DNA from: a virus
Reading direction: 5' to 3' (one strand)
DNA: 64,000 nt
Virus record (IMG/VR): IMGVR_UViG_3300037245_000806
Location: 1 to 64,000 of that record
Every line of letters starts with the position of its first letter. The first letter of the stretch is position 1. Shown here piece after piece: positions 41,759 to 57,517 of this stretch. A program made the translations under genes and the position numbers. The notes below the pieces were generated by a model that ran no database searches, was not told where the DNA came from, and worked only from the letters and a program-made list of their open reading frames with translations.

Positions 41759-43363
41759 TTAGCTACTCGGTGCCGCCATCTTTCTGACGGCCCCACCAGC
41801 CATACGTGCCCCACGGCTCGGGTTGACTCCTTGACGCTGCGGACCACCGCTAACGTCAGACTCGACAACCATACCGCGCGCGGGTAGCGCACGACTCACA
41901 ACAGGTTTCGGCGGCGTCACAGAATTCCGGGCCGCTTGCCTCTTGGCGGCGACCGCAGGAAGAAGCTCTTCAGCAAGCTCAATGACCGCGTCGGCATCCA
42001 CTGCCTTTTCAAGCGCAGAGCGGAAGTCTTCAAGGCCAGCGACCTCATTGATTGCTTCGTCCACGGCTTTCTGCTTCGCGTCATCAACCTCTACAGTGGA
42101 TTGCGAGGATATCACATCCCGCGCAATGGAAAGCATCCCACGAACACGCTCAAGTTCGGCCTTCGCGTCTTCAAGGTCTTCCTCAAACGTGTCGTCGTCG
42201 GACATGCGTGCGGCTTCGAGTTCCTCTTGCGTAGTCTCCAATTCGGCCCGGAGACTCTCAACTTCCTCAGAGGCGCTTTCGACTTGGCCCTGAAGGTCAT
42301 TGATCACGCTTTGGGCTGCCTCATCCTGCTCGGGGTCACCGTCTGCAACGATGTTGGCGAGGACTTCGTCAATGTCCGTCAACGCAGTGTCCGGGCTGGC
42401 CTCATGTGATTCCTTCAGCGTTCGGACCAACCAGTCCTGAAGCTCGGTGACATCTTCGTCCGACATGCCGTTCGAGCGTCCGAGGCTGTTGACTCGGCTG
42501 AGTTGACCCATGAGATCAGACATGAACTTGCGCCGGGTGGACTCGTCAAGGCCCTCCACGTCAATCTCGCGCAAACTTGTGACTTCCGCAAGACAGGACT
42601 TCGCATCCTCAGTGAGGCTACTCGGTCCGTTCGCACTCTCCGTGGTACGCTTCCCCTTTCCTCCGGTAGGTTGCGGATAAGCTCCGGGTGTGGAAGGGCG
42701 CATCACAGCGTCAAAGGTAACGAGTTGGAAATCAGACTCATTCACCTTGCCGCCGTCGTCAACAGAGCCATTGCCCCGCGACGATACACCCCACCTGACC
42801 TTCTTACGTGTGTACTCCTGAAGAATGAGACCGTTGGGGGTGTCCAAAAGCTCGGAGGCACCCCATACCACGCCGTCTTCTCGAAGGCGTAGGCTCCGGG
42901 TGACAATCGCGCCTTCCTTGCCATCCATGCGGCCATCCGCAGGATGCTCAAGGTGCCCGACCATGCCACCGGCTTTGATATTCTGCTGAGCGTCACTCGA
43001 CTCGTTGCCGACGATGCGCTCCCATATCTTGCGTGAGTAGGTTCGACCATTCGCGTTCTTGGTATCGGAGCGCTGGTACGGACCTTCGACGATCCAGACG
43101 CCGTCCTTCACCGTCTTGATGGGCTTGCCGCCGACCACGCGCTCGACAAGCTCAAGGTCTTCAAAGTTCTCGACGATGTCAACCGACTCGTCAATTGACT
43201 CAATGAGAAGTTGCGTAGATTCGCCTAGCGCGAACCACGCCTTCTTGCCCTGCTTAACGCAGATGACTTCGGGGATAGAAAAAACGCAGGCTCCTGCATC
43301 GCCGAAGCCTGAGTCAAGGCCTTCACATATGGGACCGAAGGCTTGGGAGATTTTGGGGTCCAT
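41759..43363 (-). CDS. prohead protease (T4 gp21-like) fused to acidic coiled-coil scaffold
   Basis: NANGRTY, GHLEHP, LDTPNG, GVSSRGNGS, FDAV..PSTPGAY; GAGGAGGAG RBS. Confidence 0.9.
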   Translation of the reverse strand: MDPKISQAFGPICEGLDSGFGDAGACVFSIPEVICVKQGKKAWFALGESTQLLIESIDESVDIVENFEDLELVERVVGGKPIKTVKDGVWIVEGPYQRSDTKNANGRTYSRKIWERIVGNESSDAQQNIKAGGMVGHLEHPADGRMDGKEGAIVTRSLRLREDGVVWGASELLDTPNGLILQEYTRKKVRWGVSSRGNGSVDDGGKVNESDFQLVTFDAVMRPSTPGAYPQPTGGKGKRTTESANGPSSLTEDAKSCLAEVTSLREIDVEGLDESTRRKFMSDLMGQLSRVNSLGRSNGMSDEDVTELQDWLVRTLKESHEASPDTALTDIDEVLANIVADGDPEQDEAAQSVINDLQGQVESASEEVESLRAELETTQEELEAARMSDDDTFEEDLEDAKAELERVRGMLSIARDVISSQSTVEVDDAKQKAVDEAINEVAGLEDFRSALEKAVDADAVIELAEELLPAVAAKRQAARNSVTPPKPVVSRALPARGMVVESDVSGGPQRQGVNPSRGARMAGGAVRKMAAPSS

Positions 43364-43670
43364 CCGTCTCCTCCTCAAAGCTCACTCTCGCAGTGCGGTC
43401 ACCCCCGCGAGGGAACACTGCAACTGCACGGCCAGTGACGAGTGAAGCCTTAACGGCTCCGAACTCTTTCGCTATGTCAATGGCCCGGTCACCAAGTTCG
43501 CTGCAACCCCACCGCCTGAAACATGCACGCGCGGCAGGGATATCGCCACTGAGGTTGTAGCTGCTCGCGTCCGCGTCTTGGATGTGGAGGATGAAAACAT
43601 GCTTGTCCCGATTCCACTCCAAGGCGAAGACCTCACCGGGTAACTTATCCGGCAGAGGTGCTTCAGCCAC
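43323..43670 (-). CDS. hypothetical protein
   Basis: GTG with GGGAGG RBS. Confidence 0.6.
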   Translation of the reverse strand: MAEAPLPDKLPGEVFALEWNRDKHVFILHIQDADASSYNLSGDIPAARACFRRWGCSELGDRAIDIAKEFGAVKASLVTGRAVAVFPRGGDRTARVSFEEETDGPQNLPSLRSHM

Positions 43671-44828: not shown

Positions 44829-45557
44829 TTAGCGCTGACGATTGACAATGTCATCGACATAGCCGGTTGTCATCTCGATCTTTCCGGCCTCAAGTGACGC
44901 GGGGATGGGAAGGCGCTGCTCGATCAACCACGCGAAGAAGTCTTCCATGTCTGGCCTGTCTTCGTTGGAACTCCACTGCTCCGCGAAGACCTGAAGCCAC
45001 TCACTGGAACCGCCCACAGCAGCATTCCCATACTCGTCTATGGCGAGCACAGCCTTGGACCCCTGCACGGAATTCAGGAAGATTCGACCAACCTTGCGAA
45101 GGCCGCTATTGCGCTCCTGTAGTTCCTTCACGACGTCAATCTCAGGTCGTGCGTTGACTGCCTCGATCCATGGGCTGATGTCAATGCCATCGCCGAGTGA
45201 CTCCTGAAGATTCGCCAACGCAGTCAGGTACTCACTGCGATGCAGGTCTGTGTTTTCGCGTGCGCTCACGATACGTGCGGCCATATCGGCATCCGCAGCC
45301 CCGGCCAACACAATGTCCTTCGCGTCACCCATTGCCCAGCTATACGGCTCTTCCCCGACAAGTGGAGGTATGGGCTCGAACTCGTCATACGCGACTTCCA
45401 AGCCCTCACCCAACGCCCACGAAATTGTCCACCAATGTGCCCACAGAACCACAGACACGCCCTCGGAGGAGAGCGCGAAGTCAACCGGAACATCTTCCTC
45501 GTAGTACGGGGAGTGCAATTGGAGCCCACGCATGCTCGCCTGAACAAGGTCTATCAC
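44829..45557 (-). CDS. acidic hypothetical protein
   Basis: GTGA overlap with the giant ORF. Confidence 0.7.
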   Translation of the reverse strand: MIDLVQASMRGLQLHSPYYEEDVPVDFALSSEGVSVVLWAHWWTISWALGEGLEVAYDEFEPIPPLVGEEPYSWAMGDAKDIVLAGAADADMAARIVSARENTDLHRSEYLTALANLQESLGDGIDISPWIEAVNARPEIDVVKELQERNSGLRKVGRIFLNSVQGSKAVLAIDEYGNAAVGGSSEWLQVFAEQWSSNEDRPDMEDFFAWLIEQRLPIPASLEAGKIEMTTGYVDDIVNRQR

Positions 45558-48500
45558 AGCTTCTCCTTGCCAACCAACACAAACACTTTCTCAGGGGGTT
45601 GCTTCTGCGGTCCGAAAGCTGTCCAGCCACGCTCTGCACACATGTCAAGAATAGCGTCTATATCACTTTGATTCGCGCACGTGGCACGGTAAAGGTAATC
45701 GAGAAGGTTAATGCCGTGTCGAACGTTCACTTGATACCGTGACATCGTGTTAAGCGCGCCAGAAGAACTGCCGTAGCCTTCGTCAAAATCCCTTTTCCAT
45801 TGCTCGGGCGTCATCAAGCGCTCTTTGACGTCACTGCCAAATTCGTCACCACGACCGACAACGACGCAATCAGTGCGCAGAGCAAGAGACTTATCAAAGT
45901 AAAGCACGTGATCCTGCTTCGTGGCTGCCTTACGGAAGCCCAAGAATACACCCTGCGTACCGCCATAACCGTAGTCTGACTCAACCGAAGCGCCTGTGTT
46001 GCCTGCGCCCCAGAACGACCTGACATTATGCGCCATGAGAATTGGCAATTCACCCAGCGACTTGATATACGACTTGGTGGTGCTGTTCAAACCATGCCCT
46101 ACATAGAAGTGCTTGCCAAAGAGCTTTTCCAGCTTTGCCCTGTCCCAGCCAAGGCGTTCGTGGCGCATGTACCCCACACTGCCTTCGTCGTACCGCCCGG
46201 CGAGCAATGGTTTGGCCTCAGCCTTAGCCTTGGTCACAGAGATTCCAAGAGCTTTTGCCGTTTGCTTCTGCAAGGCAGACAACGCCAGATCGTCGGCACC
46301 CTTACGGTACAGCTCCATGGCAGTCGTATACTCAGGGGTCACAACGCCAGTACCGTCCGACTTTGGCTTAATTTCGCCACCACTCTGATTCAAGTAGGCC
46401 TGCTTGGACCAGAATAGAATCTCTTTATCCTTCTCCGTAGCCACAGACATATCGATGCCGGTTGCCTGCGCAAAGAGCGTGAACAACGTTGCAATAGTTG
46501 CTGCGGACGCCGTCCCCTCAATGTACCCCCAAGACTGCCCTTGATGGCCTTTAACGCCCGTCTGCAATCCGGGCAGATTGGAGTCCATACCCGTGGAGTT
46601 CACGAAGAGTTTTGCGCCCAACGCCTTGGCCACGATCACAAACTGGTCCTGATTAGCGCCTGCGTAAACGTCATGGCTATCGTGCTGAAGAAGCAACGTG
46701 CCGTCCGCCTCCTGAACTACCTTTGGCCACTTGGCGTGGCTGTTCCCCTTCACGTCGAAAGCCTTCGGCACGTCGGGTTGCTCGTCAGATTCATCGACCT
46801 CAGGGGCTTGCCACAGGAACTCGCCCAGCTTCGGCGTGTGCTTACCCTTATGCGCAAGGAGGTCAGCCATGATAGGCTCAATGTACAAAGTGAGGTATTC
46901 AAGGTACATCCCGGCCATCGAGTTCACGATAGCGTTGGGCTCGTCCATCGGGCCATAAGTTCCAGCCGTCTTACCAGTAGCCTTTATGATCGCTATCAGG
47001 TCGGGCTTGATAGCAAAACAGGCCGCCATGGTCTTCTCGTTTACCGCCATATCCTGATTAGCCCCGCCGCCATCCTCTTCAGGGGCGAGGTGGTAGTTGA
47101 TCGACTTGATCGCGGCTTGGATTTTGGACCAGAAACCGTTCTGCGAGTCCACGGCCAATAGGTGCGGCCCCCCACTCCCCGTCACTTGCTTGATAACACC
47201 GGACTGCTTGAGCAACTTCGGAACAGCAAGCATCCCGGCGTGGCGTGCCATACGGAAATGAATGAGTGTTGCCGGAACCTTCTTACCCGGCGACTTCTCC
47301 CACATCACCGCCTTGACCATCACCTCCTGCTGCTCTATGGAATCACGGTCCACCTTCATCGCTCGCCCGCGTATCGGATACGCGGAGGCTATCGCTATGT
47401 CTTCCGCCTGCGCCTTGCCAAAACCCAAGGTCTTCGGATCAATGCGCAGCCGTGGTGCCTTCATCGACATCTTGATCTTGCCGATCTTCGGCCACTTGAA
47501 GTCGCTCTGAAGCTTCTTCAGCACCTTGGTCCAATCCTTCAGGTAGTTCTTCTGCCGTTTGTACAGCGTGTCAAGAATCTTGGTGCGCTTAGCCCCCGTG
47601 ATATCCTCAGACGCGAAGATGGGCGCGAGGAGCCCCTGAATATGCTTCTCCGTTAGCTTCCTGATCTTCTCGATCATTTCCCGAGCGGCCTTCCAAGCCA
47701 ACTCAGGTATCTCAGCCGTGGAGGCACCCCAATCATTCAGAAGCTTCTTTGCGTAGCCCTCCCCAACATTGCCCTTCGGATGCCAATGGGGGTCGAGACT
47801 CTCCGTAAGGCCCTTGAGTACGAACTTGAAGGCCTGTCCTCGATCAACAGGAACAAGACGCCCGGCCTTGAGTCGCATCCAGTTCCCGCGATGCCCGTCA
47901 TGGTCACCCATGAACATGTCGAGCATATGCTGTGTAAGGATTTCACCCTTGTCTTCATCCGGCAGGTCATTGGGGTCTGACTCAGGCGGCGAGCCTTCAA
48001 GCAATGGCTGGAAACTCCCGAGCTTCCCGTTGAACTCCATTTTCCCGACAGGTACCGTTGGCGTCTTGTCAACAAGCTGCGCCAGTTTGAAGGCTGCAAC
48101 CTCAACGTGTACCCGAACCTCAGCTTGGTCCTTTGGCGTCTTGAAGAACCATTGAAAGCCACCCGGCGAGGAGAGGACAGCGCAAGGATTGCTCCCACCG
48201 CTAATTGTGCCGCCCGTGTCCTTGAAGAGTCCGGGCTCAGGCGCACTGACCTGCTGTAGTATCGCGGGTGAATCGAACGCGATTTTAGCTGTGCCGATCT
48301 TCACGACAGGGGCAATGACGGGCTTCCACGCGGGCACAGCTGCGTATGACTTCTGCACCATTCCCGTCGCCGTGGGCGGCGCACCCACCGGAGCTTTCGT
48401 CTTCTTCGCGAGCTTGTTCTTGCCCTTGTGTGAGGCCTTCATGCGCGCCTTGAGCATACCGATGACAGCTTCGTACACAGGCTTCGTTGCAGCACCGGGT

Positions 48501-51500
48501 ATGAACAAAGACGCCACGTCCTGCACAACTATCTTCGTCATAATCGACCATGCAGGAAACTTGACCTTCTTCATCCACGCCGTGCTGAACGTCGTCATGT
48601 TTGTACCGACGGCCTTCAAATTTCCGCCGTTAGCGTAGAGTTGCTGAATCAACTTATTAGTCTTGGGGTCAGGGTGAGTGAACCACGCGTCGGGATTGCC
48701 AAAGCCTTCGTCACCGGACACCGGGAGGTACGCCCCCATTGCGGTGTCGGTCGCGGACAAAACGATATACTGTCCGGCCTTATTCTGTGAGAACATAAGC
48801 TTGTGCTGCTTCTTCATTGTGTCCGTGACAGCGAGGTAGCCAAGACACACAAGAGGTGCCCCGTGCAGCAGGAACACGTCACCAAACGAGACACCCGGAA
48901 CACTGGCGTGCTGACGTGAGCAATTGAAGGCGGCAGGAGCATACCCCTCTTCTGCTACGACGTCCTTCAGCACCGTGAGCATTTCTTCGTTGACCGGATA
49001 CGGGCACTTGAACAAGAGCGCGCGCCATATGTCAGCCTTGCTGGTGTCCGCAGGGATCGTCTTAGTCTTTGCCATGACCGGTGAGACGACGGGGTAGAAG
49101 TCTTTAGCCTTCGTGGCGTATTCCTTCTTGCCGGTCGGCCCTTCAGCCTCCATCTGCCAATACAGCGTGCGCCAATCGAAATCAGTACCCGACTGCATTA
49201 CAATCGCAGTCGTGACAAAGCCCCCGGTGGTCACGTACCGCATGTAACCAATAACAGTCTGTTGTAGCTTTTCAATTTTGACGGTGACCTTAACGCCGGG
49301 CGGAGGATAGCCCTGATCCAACATCGACAGCGCTGGAATCCATGCCCACGTCTTTGCGTCCGGTAAACTCAATGAAGCAGACACCCACGCCACTGCACCC
49401 GCTGGGACAGCGTAGTCAACAATACTGGCCTGCTGGTCTGTGCCGGTGGCCGCTATCGTGTGCATGTCATTCGGATTGAACGCCACAACGCCGGTCTGCC
49501 CCTCGACGTCCTGCGGACCAGTGACCTGACTATACGCGTCGGCCTTCTCACCCGTGAAGAGGTGCGGCCAACCCTTGTCAAGAAGCCACTTGACCGTGGC
49601 GTCGGTGACCAGCTGATCACGCTTGTGCAGTTCCCCGTACCACGGCAGCTTCTGGTACGAAAGGGGCACTGGCTTGAATGTCACAGCGTCAGTCTCACTG
49701 CCCGCCTTCAGGGGGTCGCCGCCCGTGATATAGCCAATGAAGAATCGCGTGACTGAGTCGTTGCCCTTGAAATCGCCTAGATAACCCACGGGCTTCACGG
49801 CGAGGCCTGTCTCCTCGTACACTTCCCTGACAGCCGTCTGCTCAAGTGACTCGCCCTTGTCCACGGTCCCCTTCGGGTACGTGAGCGTGTACCCGCCGTA
49901 GTCGTTCATCGGGTTGACCAAGAGGAAGAGCGTGCTCGGTGCGGGTGCCATGGACTCGCCGTCGCTCATCATCGCCAGCGGAGGCATGACGGCAATGATA
50001 CCTGCTGAGATGTGTCCTCCCGTGGGGAGCTTCGCCATGGGGGGCTGCTCCACTGGGTCGGGGTCATCCCAGCCGTATGGCAGAGGAACACCCGCCCCGA
50101 TATTGGCGTCATAGGGGGTCTTCAGCGTCAAGCCTTGGCCGTTCATCTTGCTGAAGACCATCTCACCGGTAACCGAATTCATGTCGGCGCTGTGCTTGAA
50201 CGCGATGGTGTAGCTGTTCGCAAGGTCTTCGACTTCGACGAGGTACGTGGCATCGTCGTCCTTGTGCCGCAGGACCGCCAACTTTTCACCTGTTGGCTCG
50301 CCCATCTTCGTCTGGTCTACCCACGCAATCAACTTGATCTTCTGGGGCTCAGTGGCGGGCTTGTACACCAGCTTAGCACCGACAGGGAATGGCGCGTCGT
50401 CTGGCGACGGGACGTAAATCAGTTTGTCTTCCAGCGCCACCTTCTTCGCGGTGCTGCTCAGCGCATAGTTAAGCTTCGGGAACGCAACCACCTCCTTGCC
50501 GGGGGCCGGGAGGAGTTCGTCCACCACGTCCTGCAAAATCTCGATCATGGGGCCATACGCCATGTTCCCTGAGAGCGCCTGCTTAAAATTGATGTTCCCC
50601 TTCTCAGTCATGATGATGTAGTAGTGCTTCGGCGAATCGCCATCTGGTTGTCGCGCGTACCCGATGATCGTGCGCGTCTTGGCGTGCCCGTAAGCAAGCT
50701 TCCCCCCAAGATCAAACATGAAGATGGGGCTGTCGCCCTTCGTGAGGGGTACAAAGCCCTTCTTCGCGATGAACTGAAGTGCCTCCGGGGTGCCTGACAT
50801 CTTCGACGGGCCAGCCTCCGAGTCCAGCGCGTCTTCAGCACCTCGCTCGGGTCGCGGACCTTCGGGCTCATAGCTGGACGTGACCGGCTTGCCTATGGAC
50901 GCGTAATCGATGACGTAGTAATTGGGGTACGTGATTGTGTTGCCGCTCAGCGTGATGGTGTCGAACGCATATGCCAAGACAACCTTGCCGTCGTCTGTAT
51001 CGAAGGCACTGACAAGGGTGTAATCCTTGTCGCCGAGCGCAACAGGGCCACCGGCAGAAAAGCCCGGCGGCAGGCTAATCGCAGACGCCGTTGTCCAATT
51101 CGGTATGGTCACGTACTTCTCGCCGGTCATCGTGCCGTCAACGTGCGTGGCAATGTCTACACCACTGTCCTCAATCGACTCCTTCAACTGAGTCTCGACA
51201 TTGCACCCTGTCGCTGACGCATGCAGGCGCAACAGCTGATACATACCGTCGTCAAAGCCAAGGACCAAGTAGTTCCCCAGACCTTGCCGCTTAACGATGG
51301 TGCCGATCTCGAACTTCATCGGAGGCCCGCCTTCAGTGGCGGTCGTGGGCGTGCCAGCTATTTCCGGCGTTTGCGAGGCCACGTTCAAGACATTCGGGTC
51401 TTTCCAGCCCGACAACTTGATGTTGCCCTCCGAAATGATATCAGCGAAGTCACCGTCATCCTGCCAGATTAGCTCGCCGTCAGGATTGCGGATGATGATG

Positions 51501-53305
51501 ATCAAACCCTCGGGCGTCGTATACACCGCGAGGAACACGAACACGTCGCCGTTCTTGTCTGTGAGCGTCATGCCCTCTGAGAGGTGCCCGCTAAAACGAT
51601 TGTAAGCCGCCATTGACGAGTCTGTGTCATTGAACGACGCCTTCTCAAATGTCGTGTAGTGGTTGGGGAAGTCAGCCGCGAGAAGCTCGTCGATCTCGCC
51701 TTCCTGCGTCGTAACAGGCTCCTGCACAGCCGCAGGTGCCACCACAGTCTGGCCATACAGAGTTCCGGGCATGTCCTTGTGCGCCTGCTTGACGACAGTC
51801 GTGCCTCCGGTCAGATCGCTGGTAAAATTGTGGTCCAAGATACCTACCACTTTGCCCTGCGGATTCTCGACCATGTGTACGACCGTACCTGACGCGTTCT
51901 TCCACGCGCCAAGATACACGTAGTCCACGCCAGCCAACGTTATTATGGAGTAAACACCCAAGGGCGTCTTCTTACCCAACGCCACGAACGCCGCCTTGGT
52001 GCTCTTGACCGGGGTGGTCTTTGAGTTCTTCCAAGCAGGGCCGCTGAGATACTTGGCGACCTTCGCCTTTTCCGACTTCTTCGCAAGCGTCTGCTGAAGC
52101 TTGATGCCGTCCTTGGGTATCGGGTTGCCCTTCACGAACTGCTCGAAGTATGGGCGCACGTCAGCGTCACGTGGGATGTTCTCTAGAATGTGCTGCCAGT
52201 TGCCCTTCTTCCAATCGGCGATGAAGATATGAAAGAGGTTACCGGCAAGCTTGTTCTGTGCTGTCCATCGCCGAGCGGAGCCGAGAAGCTTCTTGGCAAA
52301 TGGCGGCGGAATGTTCTTGCCGTAGTACGCCTTCCATACGAGCGAGATCACCTCGGCCTCAACGCCGCTGAACTTCGGATCGCCAGCTGAGGAGACGTAC
52401 CGACCGCCGTCAGGATGGAAGTAGGAGATGCACGTGTTGATCGTGTCATTGTACGATAACCACGACAGCGGATTCTGGCCATACTTCGGCGGCTTCGCCG
52501 ATAGCTCGTTGTACTCCTTGACGATATCAGGCGCTTCCGTGGCGAGGATGAAGTACGCCACGAATGGAGCCCACACAAGCTTCGCAGCCTGCTTCGGGTT
52601 CATGCCCGTGAAGACATACTTCTTGAACGCCTCCAAGACCAGCTTATCGTCAGGCGGCGTGTTGCGCTTGAGGAACGCAAGGTCACGTGAGGCGGCAATG
52701 CGATACTCAACGTCTTCCGCCATCATCGCACGATACAGCGTTCGGAACGGGTTCGGTGTGTGATAGCGCCTGTACACCGCGTTCCCGACAGCCTCAGCGC
52801 TCTGACCGAATGCCTGCCTGAGGTCCAGTGGCCATCCTGTTGCACGCATGTAGTTCTCAGTGAAACGCGCTGCCTTGCGTGGGTTCAGATCGTACTCGTA
52901 ACGCCACGCGCCGAGTGCGAAGCGATTGTACACACCTTCCGGGCGAAGGGTCATGAGTTCCGTCACGGGATCAGCCGGAATGATGCCCTGCTCAACTGAC
53001 TCCTTGAAGACCCGGTCGGACCACGCACGCCCGCTGGCTGAACCGTGTAGGTACCACGATTGAATCAGCGCGGAGTCCTGAAGGGTCTTGAAGGATTGCA
53101 CCTCTTCGAGATACGGCTTCGCGTTGACCGCGAAGAAGCGGTGCAGCTTGGCAACAACATCGAGAGTCACGTGACCGCTGGCGAGAGCCTCAGCCATACT
53201 GAAACCAGCGACACCGGGTAGCTTCCCCTCGGGATCACTGTGGGCGTCTAGGCCCTTCTGGGCGGCACGCTGAACAATCGCTGGAACGATGAAGGTCATT
53301 GGCAT
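45554..53305 (-). CDS. giant multidomain (polyvalent-like) protein: Nudix, HipA/PI3K-like kinase, possible ADP-ribosyltransferase
   Basis: GTVDKGESLEQTAVREVYEETGL; GGS..WFFK..E..DHDGHRGN..VDRG; ATG 53305 with GAGGG RBS. Confidence 0.85.
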   Translation of the reverse strand: MPMTFIVPAIVQRAAQKGLDAHSDPEGKLPGVAGFSMAEALASGHVTLDVVAKLHRFFAVNAKPYLEEVQSFKTLQDSALIQSWYLHGSASGRAWSDRVFKESVEQGIIPADPVTELMTLRPEGVYNRFALGAWRYEYDLNPRKAARFTENYMRATGWPLDLRQAFGQSAEAVGNAVYRRYHTPNPFRTLYRAMMAEDVEYRIAASRDLAFLKRNTPPDDKLVLEAFKKYVFTGMNPKQAAKLVWAPFVAYFILATEAPDIVKEYNELSAKPPKYGQNPLSWLSYNDTINTCISYFHPDGGRYVSSAGDPKFSGVEAEVISLVWKAYYGKNIPPPFAKKLLGSARRWTAQNKLAGNLFHIFIADWKKGNWQHILENIPRDADVRPYFEQFVKGNPIPKDGIKLQQTLAKKSEKAKVAKYLSGPAWKNSKTTPVKSTKAAFVALGKKTPLGVYSIITLAGVDYVYLGAWKNASGTVVHMVENPQGKVVGILDHNFTSDLTGGTTVVKQAHKDMPGTLYGQTVVAPAAVQEPVTTQEGEIDELLAADFPNHYTTFEKASFNDTDSSMAAYNRFSGHLSEGMTLTDKNGDVFVFLAVYTTPEGLIIIIRNPDGELIWQDDGDFADIISEGNIKLSGWKDPNVLNVASQTPEIAGTPTTATEGGPPMKFEIGTIVKRQGLGNYLVLGFDDGMYQLLRLHASATGCNVETQLKESIEDSGVDIATHVDGTMTGEKYVTIPNWTTASAISLPPGFSAGGPVALGDKDYTLVSAFDTDDGKVVLAYAFDTITLSGNTITYPNYYVIDYASIGKPVTSSYEPEGPRPERGAEDALDSEAGPSKMSGTPEALQFIAKKGFVPLTKGDSPIFMFDLGGKLAYGHAKTRTIIGYARQPDGDSPKHYYIIMTEKGNINFKQALSGNMAYGPMIEILQDVVDELLPAPGKEVVAFPKLNYALSSTAKKVALEDKLIYVPSPDDAPFPVGAKLVYKPATEPQKIKLIAWVDQTKMGEPTGEKLAVLRHKDDDATYLVEVEDLANSYTIAFKHSADMNSVTGEMVFSKMNGQGLTLKTPYDANIGAGVPLPYGWDDPDPVEQPPMAKLPTGGHISAGIIAVMPPLAMMSDGESMAPAPSTLFLLVNPMNDYGGYTLTYPKGTVDKGESLEQTAVREVYEETGLAVKPVGYLGDFKGNDSVTRFFIGYITGGDPLKAGSETDAVTFKPVPLSYQKLPWYGELHKRDQLVTDATVKWLLDKGWPHLFTGEKADAYSQVTGPQDVEGQTGVVAFNPNDMHTIAATGTDQQASIVDYAVPAGAVAWVSASLSLPDAKTWAWIPALSMLDQGYPPPGVKVTVKIEKLQQTVIGYMRYVTTGGFVTTAIVMQSGTDFDWRTLYWQMEAEGPTGKKEYATKAKDFYPVVSPVMAKTKTIPADTSKADIWRALLFKCPYPVNEEMLTVLKDVVAEEGYAPAAFNCSRQHASVPGVSFGDVFLLHGAPLVCLGYLAVTDTMKKQHKLMFSQNKAGQYIVLSATDTAMGAYLPVSGDEGFGNPDAWFTHPDPKTNKLIQQLYANGGNLKAVGTNMTTFSTAWMKKVKFPAWSIMTKIVVQDVASLFIPGAATKPVYEAVIGMLKARMKASHKGKNKLAKKTKAPVGAPPTATGMVQKSYAAVPAWKPVIAPVVKIGTAKIAFDSPAILQQVSAPEPGLFKDTGGTISGGSNPCAVLSSPGGFQWFFKTPKDQAEVRVHVEVAAFKLAQLVDKTPTVPVGKMEFNGKLGSFQPLLEGSPPESDPNDLPDEDKGEILTQHMLDMFMGDHDGHRGNWMRLKAGRLVPVDRGQAFKFVLKGLTESLDPHWHPKGNVGEGYAKKLLNDWGASTAEIPELAWKAAREMIEKIRKLTEKHIQGLLAPIFASEDITGAKRTKILDTLYKRQKNYLKDWTKVLKKLQSDFKWPKIGKIKMSMKAPRLRIDPKTLGFGKAQAEDIAIASAYPIRGRAMKVDRDSIEQQEVMVKAVMWEKSPGKKVPATLIHFRMARHAGMLAVPKLLKQSGVIKQVTGSGGPHLLAVDSQNGFWSKIQAAIKSINYHLAPEEDGGGANQDMAVNEKTMAACFAIKPDLIAIIKATGKTAGTYGPMDEPNAIVNSMAGMYLEYLTLYIEPIMADLLAHKGKHTPKLGEFLWQAPEVDESDEQPDVPKAFDVKGNSHAKWPKVVQEADGTLLLQHDSHDVYAGANQDQFVIVAKALGAKLFVNSTGMDSNLPGLQTGVKGHQGQSWGYIEGTASAATIATLFTLFAQATGIDMSVATEKDKEILFWSKQAYLNQSGGEIKPKSDGTGVVTPEYTTAMELYRKGADDLALSALQKQTAKALGISVTKAKAEAKPLLAGRYDEGSVGYMRHERLGWDRAKLEKLFGKHFYVGHGLNSTTKSYIKSLGELPILMAHNVRSFWGAGNTGASVESDYGYGGTQGVFLGFRKAATKQDHVLYFDKSLALRTDCVVVGRGDEFGSDVKERLMTPEQWKRDFDEGYGSSSGALNTMSRYQVNVRHGINLLDYLYRATCANQSDIDAILDMCAERGWTAFGPQKQPPEKVFVLVGKEKL

Positions 53306-53317
53306 AATTAGCCCTCG

Positions 53318-53330
53318 TAACACTGTGTTA
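53318..53330. promoter_or_regulatory. palindromic operator-like site 11 (TAACACTGTGTTA)
   Basis: abuts RBS of the giant ORF; only copy with inverted centre. Confidence 0.75.
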
Positions 53331-53353: not shown

Positions 53354-54571
53354 TTAGATGGCAGGCGTCAAGGCCTGCCAATCGGCATCTTCTCCATGAA
53401 CCTGCTCGACCCAACGCATACGAATCGTGTCAACGTGAGTTGGGCTCATCTCAGCCATGTAGCAGACACGACCGAGCGCCTCAGCTGCGGCGAGCGCGGT
53501 ACCCGATCCACCGAAGGGATCGAAGACAATTTGGCCTTCCGAGGTCGAGTCCTCAACCATCTGGGTAATCAATTCCACGGGTTTCTGGCAGGGGTGCAGC
53601 TTGTTGACCTTGGGCTGCGGGTACTCAAAGACATTCGAGCAAATCCGGTTCGGCTTCGGCAACGCAACGCCAGCACGACCGCCGTAAAGGAGGAGGTCGA
53701 ACTGATGCATGTAGTCACCCTGCGTGAGGTTCCACGAGTCCTTCGCCCACATGAGCCACTGGTGTACCTCGCCCTTGTTCATTAGCCATGACTCGAAGAG
53801 GTTGGGCAGGAAGCGACTCGCGCAAAAGACATACGACGCGCCCTTCGTGACAGACAGGATGGTCTTGCACATGGCAGTCAGGAACATCGCCCACGAATCG
53901 CTGTCCATGTCGTCGTTATCAATGCCCTCCCACGAGTAGTTCTCGTAATCGACATTGTACGGCGGGTCGGTGATGCAGACGTGCGCCTTCTTGCGCCCGA
54001 AGAGGTCGAGCACTGCGCCGGGTTGCATGATGTCGCAGCACGCGAGACGGTGCTTGCCCAACTTATAAATGGTGTCCTTCTTCGACGCGGCTTTGTCTGG
54101 TGCCTCGGGTGTCTTGTCCTTCGCCCTGTTCTGAAGCTTCTTATCCTTCGGCAACAGCGCGTGAATGGACTCCTGTAGCTCAGCGAAACCCATCACGTCA
54201 AGCTGCGGCAATGACTTGCGTATCGACTCAAGCTGAGGGAGCGCCTTCTCCGCGTCCCAATGGCCCTGCACCGCTGGGTTATTCATCACGAGGTTCGCCG
54301 TCTTCTCAGTCACCTCATCGAACTCGACGACGATGCAGTCCACGAACTCAAAGCCCTCCTCAACGAGGCCTCTGATTCGCTGATGCCCCGAAATGCAGCG
54401 CGGAGGATCGACGGCAACGTTGACCACCGGTACTTCGAGAAGGGTCAGCGCGCGGAGGGATTCCTTGAGCCCGCGAAGAGCGTCGGGCGTGATGTCTCGC
54501 GGGTTGTAGTCGGCAAGCTCGATGTCAGCTAGGCGAAGCTTCCGGGTCTCCGGCTGAAGCGCTGCGGGCAT
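53354..54571 (-). CDS. ParB-N domain plus N6A/N4C DNA methyltransferase (beta class)
   Basis: YNPR..SGHQR; TDPPYN, HPCQKPVEL, FDPFGGSGT. Confidence 0.9.
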   Translation of the reverse strand: MPAALQPETRKLRLADIELADYNPRDITPDALRGLKESLRALTLLEVPVVNVAVDPPRCISGHQRIRGLVEEGFEFVDCIVVEFDEVTEKTANLVMNNPAVQGHWDAEKALPQLESIRKSLPQLDVMGFAELQESIHALLPKDKKLQNRAKDKTPEAPDKAASKKDTIYKLGKHRLACCDIMQPGAVLDLFGRKKAHVCITDPPYNVDYENYSWEGIDNDDMDSDSWAMFLTAMCKTILSVTKGASYVFCASRFLPNLFESWLMNKGEVHQWLMWAKDSWNLTQGDYMHQFDLLLYGGRAGVALPKPNRICSNVFEYPQPKVNKLHPCQKPVELITQMVEDSTSEGQIVFDPFGGSGTALAAAEALGRVCYMAEMSPTHVDTIRMRWVEQVHGEDADWQALTPAI

Positions 54572-54812
54572 TTTTGGTCTCCTTCACAACTTGCGCGAGC
54601 GCGTGTGCGCGTGCGCCGTTACTCGACATGGCTCTCAGCCGGGTGTAAAGCCTGTGCGCTGATTCAGCGGTCTCGCGCACGATCTTACTGGTTTCAGACT
54701 CAGGGTCATCAAGTTCCTTGAGCCTTTGCGCCGCCCTCTCTGCAATAGCCTTGCGCAACTCAGGTGACAACGCGCTGAGCGCCGCGTGTAGTTTGTTCTT
54801 TGAAGCCGTCAA
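54525..54812 (-). CDS. small helical hypothetical protein
   Basis: TTG start overlapping the upstream TGA; fills gap between the two MTase genes. Confidence 0.5.
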   Translation of the reverse strand: MTASKNKLHAALSALSPELRKAIAERAAQRLKELDDPESETSKIVRETAESAHRLYTRLRAMSSNGARAHALAQVVKETKNARSASAGDPEASPS

Positions 54813-56089
54813 TCGATCATTGGTGTCACGGCCTGCCACTTCGCCCCCTCGCCATGTACGAACGTGGCCCATCGCTTCCGCACGATGTCGCAGAGCCGGG
54901 GCGTTCGCACGTATCCGATGAGCCGACGACCTGTCTTCTCAGCTGCAATGACCGTGGCCCCTGTGCCCATGTTCGGATCAAGCACGGTGTCGCCGATCTT
55001 CGAGGAGTCCATGATCGCGCGAGTCACGATCTCGACCGGCAACTTCGTCGTGGGCTTACGCTTCAAGCGGAACAGATTGCCAACGCTGCGCTCGCCCTTC
55101 ACCGCATTCCTCGCACGGAAGTATCGAGGAGAGCCTTCGCGCCAACCGTAGAGGACCGGAATCGTCGCCTCCCGGTAAGGGTACTTGGAGCTTGCCTTGA
55201 GCGAAGGGATCATCCACGCAAGCGTGTTGGACCAATGCCCCCCGAGCGCCACGAACCTTTGGTGGAGTCGCGGCAGCGTGAGAAGATTACTCGCTACGTA
55301 GACGTTGCCGTCAGTGTTATCGAGCGTGTGCTGAAGCATGACGTTCAAGAAGTCTTCGTTCACGTGCTTGGTCTCAGCGATGCACGTGAAAGCCATATCG
55401 GCGACCTTGACAGGAAAGCCTTCAAGGCTCCCCGGCTTCTCAATGGCGGCGCAAGCAATGACGTGCTCGCCCAGCTGATAGAGCCGTCCCCGTACTGACT
55501 CGGGTGATGTGCGCGCCACGGAGGGCTCAATATCCTCGTCAACCTTGCCGTGATTCTCGACGTCGTCAACGCCAGCCACAGCGCGAAGACTCCGCAAGGT
55601 GGTCTTGAGAAGTGAGTCCAGCCGCAGTGACTTGAGTTGCTTCTGTGCCTTGTCCCCGAGGGTCGAGCCGATGTCAGCGAGTAGTCGCTTCGTGAGTTCC
55701 GGTATGAAGTGCCCCCGGATGGTGCCGTTGTTGAGCGCGAAGTTGGCCCGGCGCTCCGTGGCATCATCGAAGCGGACGACAATGCAGCTAACCTCCTCCA
55801 CGCCATGAGCGATAAGCTGCCGGATGCGCTGGTGACCGCCGACGATACGCGCGCTGCCCTTGCGTAGGTTCACGACAGGGAAGGCGAGCAACCCCAGCTG
55901 CTGAAGGCTATTCGAGAGCCCGGTGAGCGCGTCCTGCGTAATGGACCTCGCGTTGTACGGGGCCTCTTCGAGCGCTGCTATGTTGAGGGTCTTCAGGGTG
56001 ACGCTGGCGTACTTCGGGTCGGCCTTCGGCTTCTTCACCGCAGACTTGCTCTTCTTCTTGGCGCTCTTCTTCTTCTTACGGGCAACCAT
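54809..56089 (-). CDS. ParB-N domain plus degenerate DNA methyltransferase
   Basis: YNAR..GGHQR; AFTCIA in place of TDPPY; VLDPNMGTGAT. Confidence 0.8.
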   Translation of the reverse strand: MVARKKKKSAKKKSKSAVKKPKADPKYASVTLKTLNIAALEEAPYNARSITQDALTGLSNSLQQLGLLAFPVVNLRKGSARIVGGHQRIRQLIAHGVEEVSCIVVRFDDATERRANFALNNGTIRGHFIPELTKRLLADIGSTLGDKAQKQLKSLRLDSLLKTTLRSLRAVAGVDDVENHGKVDEDIEPSVARTSPESVRGRLYQLGEHVIACAAIEKPGSLEGFPVKVADMAFTCIAETKHVNEDFLNVMLQHTLDNTDGNVYVASNLLTLPRLHQRFVALGGHWSNTLAWMIPSLKASSKYPYREATIPVLYGWREGSPRYFRARNAVKGERSVGNLFRLKRKPTTKLPVEIVTRAIMDSSKIGDTVLDPNMGTGATVIAAEKTGRRLIGYVRTPRLCDIVRKRWATFVHGEGAKWQAVTPMID

Positions 56090-56143
56090 GCTGCCCTCCC
56101 TCTCGTTGTAAAGGGGTACGGGCGTGTGAAACACAACGTAGTC

Positions 56144-57517
56144 TCAACTCACCCAATCAGCGAAATTCACAGCACTCTGTCGAGCTTCGGCGTCGGTCTT
56201 GATCTTACCGGCCTTCGCTCGCTGTTCCTTCTCCCAATCGTCCTGCTTGCCCATCTCCCAATCGCCGTGGTACGTCAGCTTCGGAAAGAACTTGTCGCCG
56301 ACACCAAAGCCACTGAAGGCACGGTGCGACCAGCCATACCACTTGCCGGTCTTCGCGCCCTTGCCGATGCTGGCCACCTCGTGACTCGAATGTGATTTCT
56401 CAGGCGTGATCTTGTACCGATTTCGGAAGTCCTTCGGATTGTCACGCCAATGCTTCTCGTCCAACGCGATGGGGAACATCACGTCTGCGCGCTCGGAAAT
56501 GAAGCGTGAGCCCCGAAAGCGAAACTGCTCAGTCGGGACGTATACGCCGTCCTGTTCGCGCTCGAAGAGGATGGACAAGTCGGGACGTGCATGGATGTAG
56601 TATTCGGTCGCAGGCTGCACTGACTCAACGATGAAATTAGACTGACCGGGGCGCAGGAAGAGCGGGCCTTCGACCACGGAACGATCCATCGCCTCGATGA
56701 TCGCCTCGGTGGTCCCATGCTTCTTCCCGGTCTTCTTGGCCTTGTACTTCTTGGCGTTGAACGGGGGCGGTACCTTAGGCTTGGGCCATTCGTTCTTCCC
56801 CGGCTTGTCGAACGTTCGCGTGGCGGGGTTTTGCTGCTTCTTGAGCCACGCCTTCCCGATAGGATTCTTCAACGGGCGCTTGAGGATACGCTGCCCAAGG
56901 TTATGTAGCTGCGGCTTGATAACCGCGACCCAATCGTCAACGCTCACGTCCACGTTGTTATCGACAATGCGCATGTTCTTCGGGCCGAAGAGCTTGGCGT
57001 ACTTCTCCATATTCCGGTGCGCGCCACGCCACGCATCTTCCACGAAGCTGTCGGGCACGAAACGTCCACCGGCTTCTTTGCGCACGCGGTTGCGTTCGAG
57101 CGCCTTCTCAAGTGACGTGGTCACGAAGACCATGAAGATGTCATAGCCGAGCGCCCTGAGTTTCCGGGCGGGTTTGGCAACGCGGTCATAGGCCCATGCG
57201 GTACCGTCGATGATGAGCCCGAGGCGTCGTTGAGCGTAGTGGCGCAACTCCATCTTCATGGCATCACGCGCCTTGGTGAAGAGCCCGTATTCTTTGCCGA
57301 CCTCGGCGGGGGGTATACCGGCGAATTTCATGTAACGCTCAAGGTGCTTGTCTGCGTTGATGATCTTGAGGCCCGCACCGCCGAAGAGCGCCGTGGATAC
57401 CAGCGACTTGCCTGCGCCACCAGCACCGGCGAGGAAGACGGCGCGTAGGGTATGCGAGTCGCGAAGCCCCTCAGAAACCACAGAGTCTTCGGACACGAAC
57501 GCCTCACTCAGACTCAT
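56144..57517 (-). CDS. Zeta-toxin-like P-loop kinase with extra C-terminal domain
   Basis: AVFLAGAGGAGKS, INAD, LIIDGT, GYDIFMVFVTTSLEKALERN..R; C-terminal SIG..KWYGWSHRA..FGVG. Confidence 0.8.
   Translation of the reverse strand: MSLSEAFVSEDSVVSEGLRDSHTLRAVFLAGAGGAGKSLVSTALFGGAGLKIINADKHLERYMKFAGIPPAEVGKEYGLFTKARDAMKMELRHYAQRRLGLIIDGTAWAYDRVAKPARKLRALGYDIFMVFVTTSLEKALERNRVRKEAGGRFVPDSFVEDAWRGAHRNMEKYAKLFGPKNMRIVDNNVDVSVDDWVAVIKPQLHNLGQRILKRPLKNPIGKAWLKKQQNPATRTFDKPGKNEWPKPKVPPPFNAKKYKAKKTGKKHGTTEAIIEAMDRSVVEGPLFLRPGQSNFIVESVQPATEYYIHARPDLSILFEREQDGVYVPTEQFRFRGSRFISERADVMFPIALDEKHWRDNPKDFRNRYKITPEKSHSSHEVASIGKGAKTGKWYGWSHRAFSGFGVGDKFFPKLTYHGDWEMGKQDDWEKEQRAKAGKIKTDAEARQSAVNFADWVS

Follow-up and report, generated by a model that had tools for sequence, protein, structure and literature searches.

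The window analysed here, a stretch of 64,000 nucleotides, comes from an uncultured 143-kb contractile-tailed phage (IMG/VR record) and carries a giant gene on its minus strand. This gene is part of the head module; it runs in the same direction as the genes for a Gp23-type capsid protein and an S77 prohead protease and is situated upstream of both. On its other side, adjacent genes encode anti-defence functions, namely DNA methyltransferases and a fusion of Zeta/AAA_33 with Tad6, a Thoeris inhibitor. This position between anti-defence and prohead protease/capsid genes is kept in relatives, and the surrounding gene order is conserved in four of them (L007-L010).

In the list of open reading frames, the frame is called from a GTG (45554..53323, minus strand, 2,589 aa). 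Because the relatives share an N-terminus of the form MP(L/M)T..VP and a GAGG motif is found 8 nt upstream, we set the start at ATG 53305. The coding sequence then spans 45554..53305 (minus strand; stop codon 45554-45556) and encodes 2,583 aa, which bears out the length proposed in a first-pass annotation of these positions. Residue numbers of the domains are counted from GTG 53323 (the C-terminal domain thus ends at aa 2589). The frame is real, since 7.7 kb free of stop codons and full-length relatives with 33-60% identity, 17 in number, are far beyond chance. At least 53 representative clusters of relatives, all uncultured, are present in metagenomes. The multi-domain architecture suggested in the same annotation is supported overall: reading frame, domain folds and motifs, conservation, and synteny are all observed. 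The Nudix domain is the only one with a sequence match to a curated family.

A gene for a 242-aa protein follows (44829..45557, minus strand). Its GTG start overlaps the TGA stop of the giant gene and is preceded by AAGGAG, an arrangement which, as read from the sequence, makes it translationally coupled. In L007-L010, each of the four giant genes is followed by a homologue; none stands beside genes encoding the N-domain alone (see below). No family match was found for the 242-aa protein, and complex prediction with the C-terminal domain of the giant protein gave a score of 0.00, that is, no verdict.

The N-Terminal Half

The protein begins with a helical module of about 105 aa (52979..53305, minus strand; aa 7-115), a candidate for head association or packaging. 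The first-pass annotation had noticed a motif in these ~100 residues and likened it to a small domain of phage head-morphogenesis proteins. The motif is conserved in the relatives, and a profile search retrieves the module in 410 representative proteins. Its fusion partners elsewhere include Phage_portal_3, Peptidase_S78_2 (XkdF prohead proteases), GNAT, NUDIX, and 2-5 RNA ligase (2H) domains. In one portal fusion (P0134), Phage_portal_3 covers aa 48-404 and the module aa 505-612. A BFVD search also matches the module to proteins annotated "prohead protease/XkdF" and to other phage proteins (probability 1.0, rmsd 2.4-4 Å, 19-29% identity). No Pfam family covers it, stand-alone copies included, and a search for a second copy in the phage genome found none.

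The module is the tip of an all-helical N-domain, the rest of which (52064..52978, minus strand; aa 116-420) is conserved, modelled by AlphaFold with a pLDDT of 80, and matched by no PDB relative. In related phages (L004-L006), the whole N-domain of about 400 aa exists as a stand-alone gene of 360-414 aa at the same position of the head module. Two known identities were considered for it. A T4-type portal (PF07230), suggested by the position upstream of the protease, is rejected because the portal of this phage lies elsewhere in the genome, in a separate 656-aa frame (G000:C1:111454-112566, 152 bits). MuF (PF04233) and VG15 (PF25310) are likewise rejected: Pfam gives no match at E <= 1, and a search of the whole genome finds no MuF.

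The N-domain is followed by a variable, beta-rich region (50069..52003, minus strand; aa 441-1085), where relatives carry insertions of 168-347 aa according to the conservation profile. Degenerate small repeats are possible there: BLAST self-comparison of the giant protein reveals no internal repeats, and HMMs of the repeat unit give weak unit-to-unit cross-matches (i-E 0.003-0.006).

Nudix, Kinase-Like, and ADP-Ribosyltransferase-Like Domains

The Nudix domain (49544..50026, minus strand; aa ~1100-1260) contains a complete Nudix box at 49802-49870, where the first-pass annotation had read one (~49803-49871). The box spans aa 1152-1174 (G1152-x5-E1158-x7-R1166-E1167-V-Y-E1170-E1171-T-G-L1174); it is found in strict form in 49 of 53 giants, and its residues vary little or not at all among the 17 full-length relatives. 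Matches come from Pfam NUDIX (PF00293; 41.3 bits, the cut-off being 21.1; E 1.8e-10), PHROG Nudix families, and PDB Nudix entries. By sequence, the domain thus belongs to the Nudix hydrolase superfamily. As regards the substrate subfamily (ADPR-ase, NADH, ApnA, RppH, MutT), NCBIfam equivalogs score at most 30 bits against cut-offs of 103-475, and the best PDB sequence matches, which are weak, are ApnA/RppH-like.

Next comes a first middle region (48344..49540, minus strand; aa 1262-1660), conserved in relatives and matching no family and no PDB sequence. It leads to a domain (47489..48271, minus strand; aa 1685-1945) with the bilobal fold of the PI3/4K-CtkA-HipA group of kinases. The atypical kinase motifs announced at ~47520-48230 are present and invariant in 17 relatives: K1728 (WFFK), D1807-H-D1809, N1814 (D1809-G-H-R-G-N1814), and D1827-R-G. 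The residue set is hence complete, with an ATP-binding Lys, a catalytic Asp with an Asn five residues on, and a metal-binding DxG. Identity to kinases of the PI4K type II, CtkA, and HipA types amounts to 13-15%. Curated models do not recognize the domain: PI3_PI4_kinase, HipA_2, and Kinase-PolyVal HMMs have no match on the phage genome at E <= 10, and hmmscan of the giant protein with curated kinase HMMs gives none at E <= 1.

What the kinase-like and Nudix domains act on may be asked jointly. They might form a unit that processes NAD or ADP-ribose or destroys signals, its targets being immune second messengers or products of NAD breakdown that are first phosphorylated and then hydrolyzed; the substrates would in that case be small molecules derived from nucleotides, not host proteins. 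The closest solved folds of the kinase domain do include the lipid and small-molecule kinases PI4KIIalpha and MavQ; a fold search of the ESM Atlas finds the same fold in bacterial proteins with HD domains or with NUDIX, the latter in 98% of the proteins of one 641-aa cluster; and phage Nudix domains have been proposed to counter ADPr-derived signals (PMC9503650). However, the protein kinases CtkA, HipA, Fam20, CotH, and actin-fragmin kinase score nearly as well, and the recurrent partner of the kinase module in other phages is a protein-modifying ADP-ribosyltransferase (ART) of the R-S-E type. We consider a purely small-molecule role possible, with the odds against it. The module also occurs in Phage_Mu_F proteins with DRAT/ADPrib_exo_Tox domains. 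Kinase and ART are paired in at least three phage groups that are unrelated, and capsid-linked proteins of unrelated phages show this pairing repeatedly.

A second middle region (46229..47461, minus strand; aa 1955-2365), made of an alpha/beta part and a beta-sandwich, packs in the model against the kinase and C-terminal domains (pLDDT 83, pTM 0.71). Feature searches of the ESM Atlas with this region and with the C-terminus returned low-confidence leads, at noise level for this region: DUF5846/DUF5863 (145-154 shared features) and portal-like clusters (0.83-0.84).

Finally, modelling of the C-terminal domain (45557..46153, minus strand; aa 2391-2589) finds an ART fold with its split beta-sheet NAD-binding core. 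An ART fold had been suspected there with low confidence, and its resemblance to DarT, of moderate strength, is at the level of the fold only. The motifs noticed earlier (~45560-46130), including a Gln in place of Glu, are present and conserved in 53 relatives: VGH2410G, S2446..D2450..G2454G, Y2475FD, and Q2531. H2410 is kept in 50 of these relatives, Y2475 in about 40, and Q2531 in 52, the one exception being an Asp. The model (strands in its own numbering) places H2410 in strand 728-732 and Q2531 at the start of strand 852-855; Y2475 falls in strand 794-797. We read the three residues as a putative triad and the domain as a candidate H-Y-[E/D/Q] ART, in which Gln would occupy the place of the canonical Glu.

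Membership of the DarT family (PF14487/DUF4433) is rejected: the Gln is conserved, the catalytic Glu (E170 in EPEC DarT) is absent, and the sequence tests are negative. A Pfam search of the giant protein for DarT or another ART at the C-terminus, DarT (PF14487; E <= 10) and ART-PolyVal HMMs and PADLOC on the phage genome, and tblastn of the C-terminus against phages and plasmids found nothing. A PDB profile search with the domain and hhalign of the C-terminus against one DarT sequence gave no match, and hhalign of the 53-sequence profile against 31 DarT sequences gave a probability of 0.2.

Since the catalytic Glu is missing, the domain could be a non-catalytic module that binds NAD/ADP-ribose or nucleic acids, within a protein that is mainly an internal head or ejection protein (inner body, core, DNA conduit), whose size matters and some of whose enzyme-like domains are degenerate. 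The Gln on the catalytic strand of 52 of 53 relatives, the roughly 1,400 aa with no enzymatic assignment, the core head-module gene formed by the stand-alone N-domain, and the 910-aa C-terminal model, one compact body (pTM 0.71), are all in line with such a structural role. Yet related phages that have only the N-domain still build heads, and the extension is therefore not structurally essential. The catalytic residues of the Nudix and kinase domains are invariant, and many polar residues of the C-terminal domain (R2390, H2410, S2446, D2450, R2464, D2477, R2483, D2485, D2493, Q2531, R2535, and H2536) are nearly so, as is expected of an active site. Moreover, the ART clade named HY-[EDQ] is accepted to include members with Gln or Asp (PMC9503650). 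A mainly structural protein seems to us very unlikely.

Relation to Known Phage Effectors

Polyvalent virion effectors are an already described class, of which the giant protein is a variant. Phage polyvalent proteins were described by Iyer, Burroughs, Anand, de Souza, and Aravind (2017; PMC5512222), and virion-packaged ART and Nudix domains are treated there and in PMC9503650, Nudix being mentioned only once in PMC5512222. The class is recognized by at least two effector-type domains on one polypeptide, encoded by a phage or a conjugative element among virion or transfer genes; the giant protein has three enzyme-type domains and a head-associated one. As in these proteins, effector domains (kinase, ART, nucleotide hydrolase) stand behind a head-associated domain in a very large protein encoded among virion morphogenesis genes, for which packaging and injection are predicted. 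In contrast, it matches neither Kinase-PolyVal, ART-PolyVal, and LPD domains nor MuF, and its anchor is another, unnamed helical domain. We found no description of a Nudix domain combined with a PI4K/HipA-like kinase and a DarT-like fold. With this family come three enzyme modules and one head-associated module missed by curated libraries.

The kinase-like middle module has a homologue in Mycobacterium prophage McProf gp54 (BK061309.1; E 4e-16, 28% identity across 225 aa) that keeps the kinase motifs (K, HD..H, DxGQAF), as Parafrankia proteins also do. Gp54 follows the same logic, from head domain to kinase to ART, and is encoded between portal and capsid genes. Gp54 has 1,185 aa, a VG15 minor-capsid N-domain, an R-S-E ADPrib_exo_Tox ART, and no Nudix domain, whereas the giant protein has an unrelated N-domain, a DarT-like (H-Y-Q) ART-like fold, and twice the length. 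In Yersinia phage fHe-Yen8-01 (OR620963.1), gp131 (272 aa, Nudix) aligns to aa 967-1250 with 30% identity (E 2e-21), and gp129 (2,146 aa, "ADP-ribosyltransferase toxin") carries the same kinase-like module with K, D-x4-N, and DxG (HMM i-E 3e-5); a search for the module in gp130 gave no significant match. The "particle associated" labels of gp129 and gp131 are the depositor's annotation and were traced to no paper. These are separate neighbouring genes near tail fibre and terminase genes, otherwise dissimilar, whereas the giant is one head-module polypeptide.

DarT (DUF4433) of the DarTG toxin-antitoxin and phage defence system differs in having no sequence relationship to the giant's C-terminus and a Glu where the giant has Gln. 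The giant protein is phage-encoded and fused instead of part of a toxin-antitoxin pair, and no macro or NADAR (DarG-like) partner was found in the phage genome. T4 Alt, an ART produced late, goes into a T4-type head and is injected to modify host proteins (PMC5512222). The giant protein would resemble it in concept, but Alt, which has 682 aa, belongs to the R-S-E ARTs, lacks both kinase and Nudix domains, and shows no sequence similarity.

Possible Packaging and Delivery of the Giant Protein

The reading we prefer, to which we give a probability of about 0.65, is that of a late protein of the polyvalent kind, from a myovirus of the T4-capsid type, that is packaged and delivered as a host-acting multi-enzyme. 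A head-module protein of about 400 aa, with the recurrent ~105-aa module at its tip, would have been extended in this lineage by about 2,170 aa carrying three predicted enzymes: a Nudix pyrophosphohydrolase, an atypical PI4K/CtkA/HipA-like kinase, and the DarT-like ART-fold domain. The N-domain would take the protein into the prohead, and the protein would enter the host with the DNA. There, early in infection, as with T4 Alt and MuF-linked effectors, the kinase and ART-like domains may modify host macromolecules, protein or nucleic acid, and the Nudix domain may hydrolyze NDP-X compounds such as ADP-ribose- or NAD-derived molecules or nucleotide caps. Packaging or injection and the substrates, which the first-pass annotation had also suggested, are steps that we infer, as is catalysis by the Gln-type domain.

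Alternatively, the head-module position could reflect late co-transcription, and the protein could be a late cytoplasmic multi-enzyme of the producing cell, neither packaged nor injected, that protects or modifies progeny DNA, for example, or suppresses NAD-based abortive infection late. The neighbouring methyltransferases and Zeta/AAA_33-Tad6 fusion are able to act in the cytoplasm, and packaging is, as said, what we infer. The domain borders also show no conserved set of T4-type [LIVMF]xE protease sites. Apart from the Nudix box, conservation of such sites is limited to E928 and to E231, which falls in a disordered N-domain loop; proteolytic processing is therefore unsupported. However, the fusions of the N-terminal module to portal and prohead protease proteins, the conservation of the N-domain in the head module even with no enzymes attached, and the kinase and Nudix homologues in capsid-fusion and virion-annotated proteins all point to the virion; late genes alone would, besides, counter defences too late in a first infection. 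We hold this cytoplasmic role to be unlikely.

In weighing virion delivery, we counted for it the head-module position, the stand-alone N-domain, the module fusions, the complete Nudix box, and the capsid-linked kinase homologues, and against it the fold-only DarT similarity, the Gln for Glu, the unmatched curated kinase HMMs, and the ~1,400 unassigned residues.

Proteins that a phage delivers along with its DNA are at work before its genes are expressed, and therefore decide whether NAD- or signal-based defences can fire. More speculatively, and in our opinion rather improbably as a conjunction, the ~105-aa module could be a general capsid-loading tag across phage lineages and the H-Y-Q domain an active virion-delivered nucleic-acid ADP-ribosyltransferase. 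If active on nucleic acids, the domain would be a phage counterpart of DarT, and the phage would turn the chemistry of the host's DarT defence on host DNA or RNA, alongside the adjoining kinase. If the module is a loading tag, packaged effectors could be traced in metagenomes by a simple sequence handle, and cargo might perhaps be loaded into phage heads with it.

The giant protein and its phage

The giant protein P0001 is best read as a virion-linked effector of the polyvalent kind described in PMC5512222 and PMC9503650. This class of effectors is already known. What is new is the anchor domain, the kinase clade, the ART-like domain and their combination with a Nudix domain within about 2,600 aa; curated libraries recognise none of these. 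The architecture of the protein is what the analysis shows; its packaging, delivery, processing and substrates are what we infer.

The IMG/VR virus record from which bases 1-64000 are taken is 143,033 bp long, with a CheckV completeness of 98%. The phage is a myovirus: it encodes tail sheath and baseplate proteins, its capsid protein is of the Gp23 type, and its prohead protease belongs to S77 (T4 gp21-type). Among 50,697 GenBank records, no phage is more than 30% identical in the capsid protein; hence, the lineage is uncultured.

The giant gene occupies 53323 to 45554 of the minus strand as a single open frame, of 2,589 codons when counted from a GTG. The N-terminus common to the family, MP(L/M)T..VP, and a GAGG located 8 nt upstream set the start at the ATG at 53305. 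The product therefore has 2,583 aa, the length proposed by the first-pass annotation, whose listed motifs were also all found where it had placed them. Residues are numbered here from the GTG, as in P0001. A word-indexed search retrieved 17 full-length relatives (2,275-3,179 aa, 29-59% identity), all 17 metagenomic and carried by contigs of up to 155 kb, and an exhaustive profile search gave about 53 representative clusters of giant relatives (2,185-3,800 aa).

An N-terminal domain linked to the head module

In a conservation profile, residues 1-420 form the best-conserved non-catalytic part of the protein. Related phage loci (L004, 10001-11245; L005, 9659-10903; L006, 212-1411) encode, at the same position, stand-alone proteins that have 399-414 aa and share 42-52% identity with this domain. 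Their genes precede the same small genes, homologous to those encoding 122, 148 and 115 aa in the window, and then the protease and capsid genes. This shared place in the head module indicates, at the level of gene order and sequence, that the giant protein is a conserved head-module protein with an extension of about 2,170 aa. The domain is not the portal, which sits at 111 kb of the genome, nor is it a MuF or VG15 protein, since it has no Pfam match and the genome has no MuF.

The first ~105-125 residues match predicted viral structures with a probability of 1.0 (rmsd 2.4-4 Å, 19-29% identity), in proteins labelled prohead protease, XkdF, portal-related, Tudor, HAD or ParB. When 1.8 billion proteins were searched with a profile of residues 7-126, 410 representatives had E <= 0.001. 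In remoter matches, the module lies at either terminus or in the middle, and its fusion partners are Phage_portal_3, Peptidase_S78_2, NUDIX, GNAT and 2',5'-RNA-ligase-type domains as well as DUF5824. For example, P0134 carries Phage_portal_3 at residues 48-404 and the module at residues 505-612. Stand-alone copies of ~100 aa have no Pfam family match. These matches and fusions support the first-pass suggestion that a small domain here is linked to the head, and the distribution fits a module that would act inside the capsid. PMC9503650 reports frequent packaging of ART and Nudix domains in myovirus heads, or their fusion to MuF, portal and prohead protease. A less likely alternative to a virion-linked effector is a purely cytoplasmic late enzyme. 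Hardly any conserved T4-type cleavage site was seen between the domains.

Nudix, kinase-like and ART-like domains

The stretch spanning residues ~440-1085 is rich in beta structure and poorly conserved, and it is where inserts of 168-347 aa occur in relatives. Repeat units are degenerate at best: a BLAST self-comparison gave no self-match, and cross-matches between unit HMMs reached only i-E 0.003-0.006. The Nudix domain, judged by sequence, is unambiguous (41.3 bits in Pfam, with PHROG Nudix families and PDB Nudix matches), and its metal-binding residues are conserved in relatives. Comparison with NCBIfam equivalogs assigned no substrate subfamily. Residues 967-1250 align at 30% identity with gp131 of Yersinia phage fHe-Yen8-01, a Nudix protein labelled particle-associated by its depositors.

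In the kinase-like domain, K1728, D1809-x4-N1814 and D1827-x-G are invariant among the 17 full-length relatives, and curated kinase HMMs (HipA_2, PI3_PI4_kinase, Kinase-PolyVal; Pfam on the protein) gave no match. A homologue of the module forms the middle part of gp54 of the Mycobacterium prophage McProf, which is encoded between portal and capsid genes and reads VG15 minor-capsid domain, kinase module, ADPrib_exo_Tox ART. Another homologous segment spans residues 1536-1713 of fHe-Yen8-01 gp129, a virion-annotated "ART toxin" of 2,146 aa. An ESM Atlas fold search found the module in Phage_Mu_F proteins with DRAT/ADPrib_exo_Tox, in HipA_2 proteins and in bacterial proteins of the NUDIX and HD kinds. 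Thus, the pairing of a kinase with an adjacent ART recurs in capsid-linked proteins, as McProf gp54, gp129 and the Phage_Mu_F fusions illustrate. Two chromosomal Parafrankia proteins (P0025 and P0026, 862 and 834 aa) carry the module near their C-terminus at 35-40% identity and keep GDHDG..N and VDRGQAFKF. Alternatively, the kinase and Nudix pair may act on small molecules rather than on proteins.

At the C-terminus, every sequence test was negative (DarT and ART-PolyVal HMMs, PADLOC, PDB profile, hhalign against DarT, tblastn against phages and plasmids), and membership of the DarT family is therefore not accepted. The domain is strongly constrained across 53 relatives: D2450 is present in all 53, Q2531 in 52, with Asp in the remaining one, and H2410 in 50. 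R2390, S2446, R2464, D2477, R2483, D2485, D2493, R2535 and H2536 are also conserved. The structural model places H2410 on the domain's first strand and Y2475 on a middle strand, with Q2531 at the start of the strand that bears the catalytic Glu in ARTs. The putative triad H2410/Y2475/Q2531 would fit the "HY-[EDQ]" ART clade named in PMC9503650. We file the domain as an ART fold that would work like a DarT-type or PARP-type enzyme. A less likely alternative here is a mainly structural internal protein whose ART-like domain is non-catalytic. Residues 1262-1660 and 1955-2365 are conserved in relatives, with no family assigned by Pfam or PDB sequence searches or, for the latter, by atlas features; in the model, residues 1955-2365 are packed together with the kinase domain and the ART-like domain.

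Genes around the giant gene

Along transcription, a Zeta/AAA_33-Tad6 fusion and then two ParB-N6/N4 methyltransferases precede the giant gene; after it come a coupled 242-aa gene, three small genes, the protease, the capsid protein and a gp13-like neck protein. This neighbourhood order is kept in four relatives (L007-L010). The 457-aa fusion (56144-57517, minus strand) has a Zeta-toxin/AAA_33 P-loop kinase domain at residues 25-189 and a Tad6 type I Thoeris inhibitor at residues 360-457 (E 2e-25). It is also upstream of the giant gene in L007-L009; in L010, the Zeta/AAA_33 protein has no Tad6 match. The fusion was not found beside stand-alone N-domain genes. Also present in L007 and missing from L008-L010, the two paralogous methyltransferase genes (53354-54571 and 54809-56134, minus strand) resemble an insertion within a conserved Zeta-Tad6/giant gene pair; in relatives without them, a Zeta-like gene directly precedes the giant gene.

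The 242-aa gene (44829-45557, minus strand) is translationally coupled to the giant gene, its GTG overlapping the TGA of the latter (GTGA), with AAGGAG upstream. Homologues follow the giant gene in four of four relatives examined. The gene accompanies only the extended form, being absent beside stand-alone N-domain genes, and its product had no family match in protein searches.

The S77 prohead protease (41759-43378, minus strand) has 539 aa here and 860 aa in L010. This far exceeds the ~200 aa of the protease domain and suggests that a scaffold or core segment is fused to it. Finally, outside the window, at 111454-112566 of the whole genome (G000:C1), is the T4-type portal gene, a 656-aa frame scoring 152 bits. 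It is ~60 kb away from the protease and capsid genes, unlike in T4, where gene 20 precedes gene 21.
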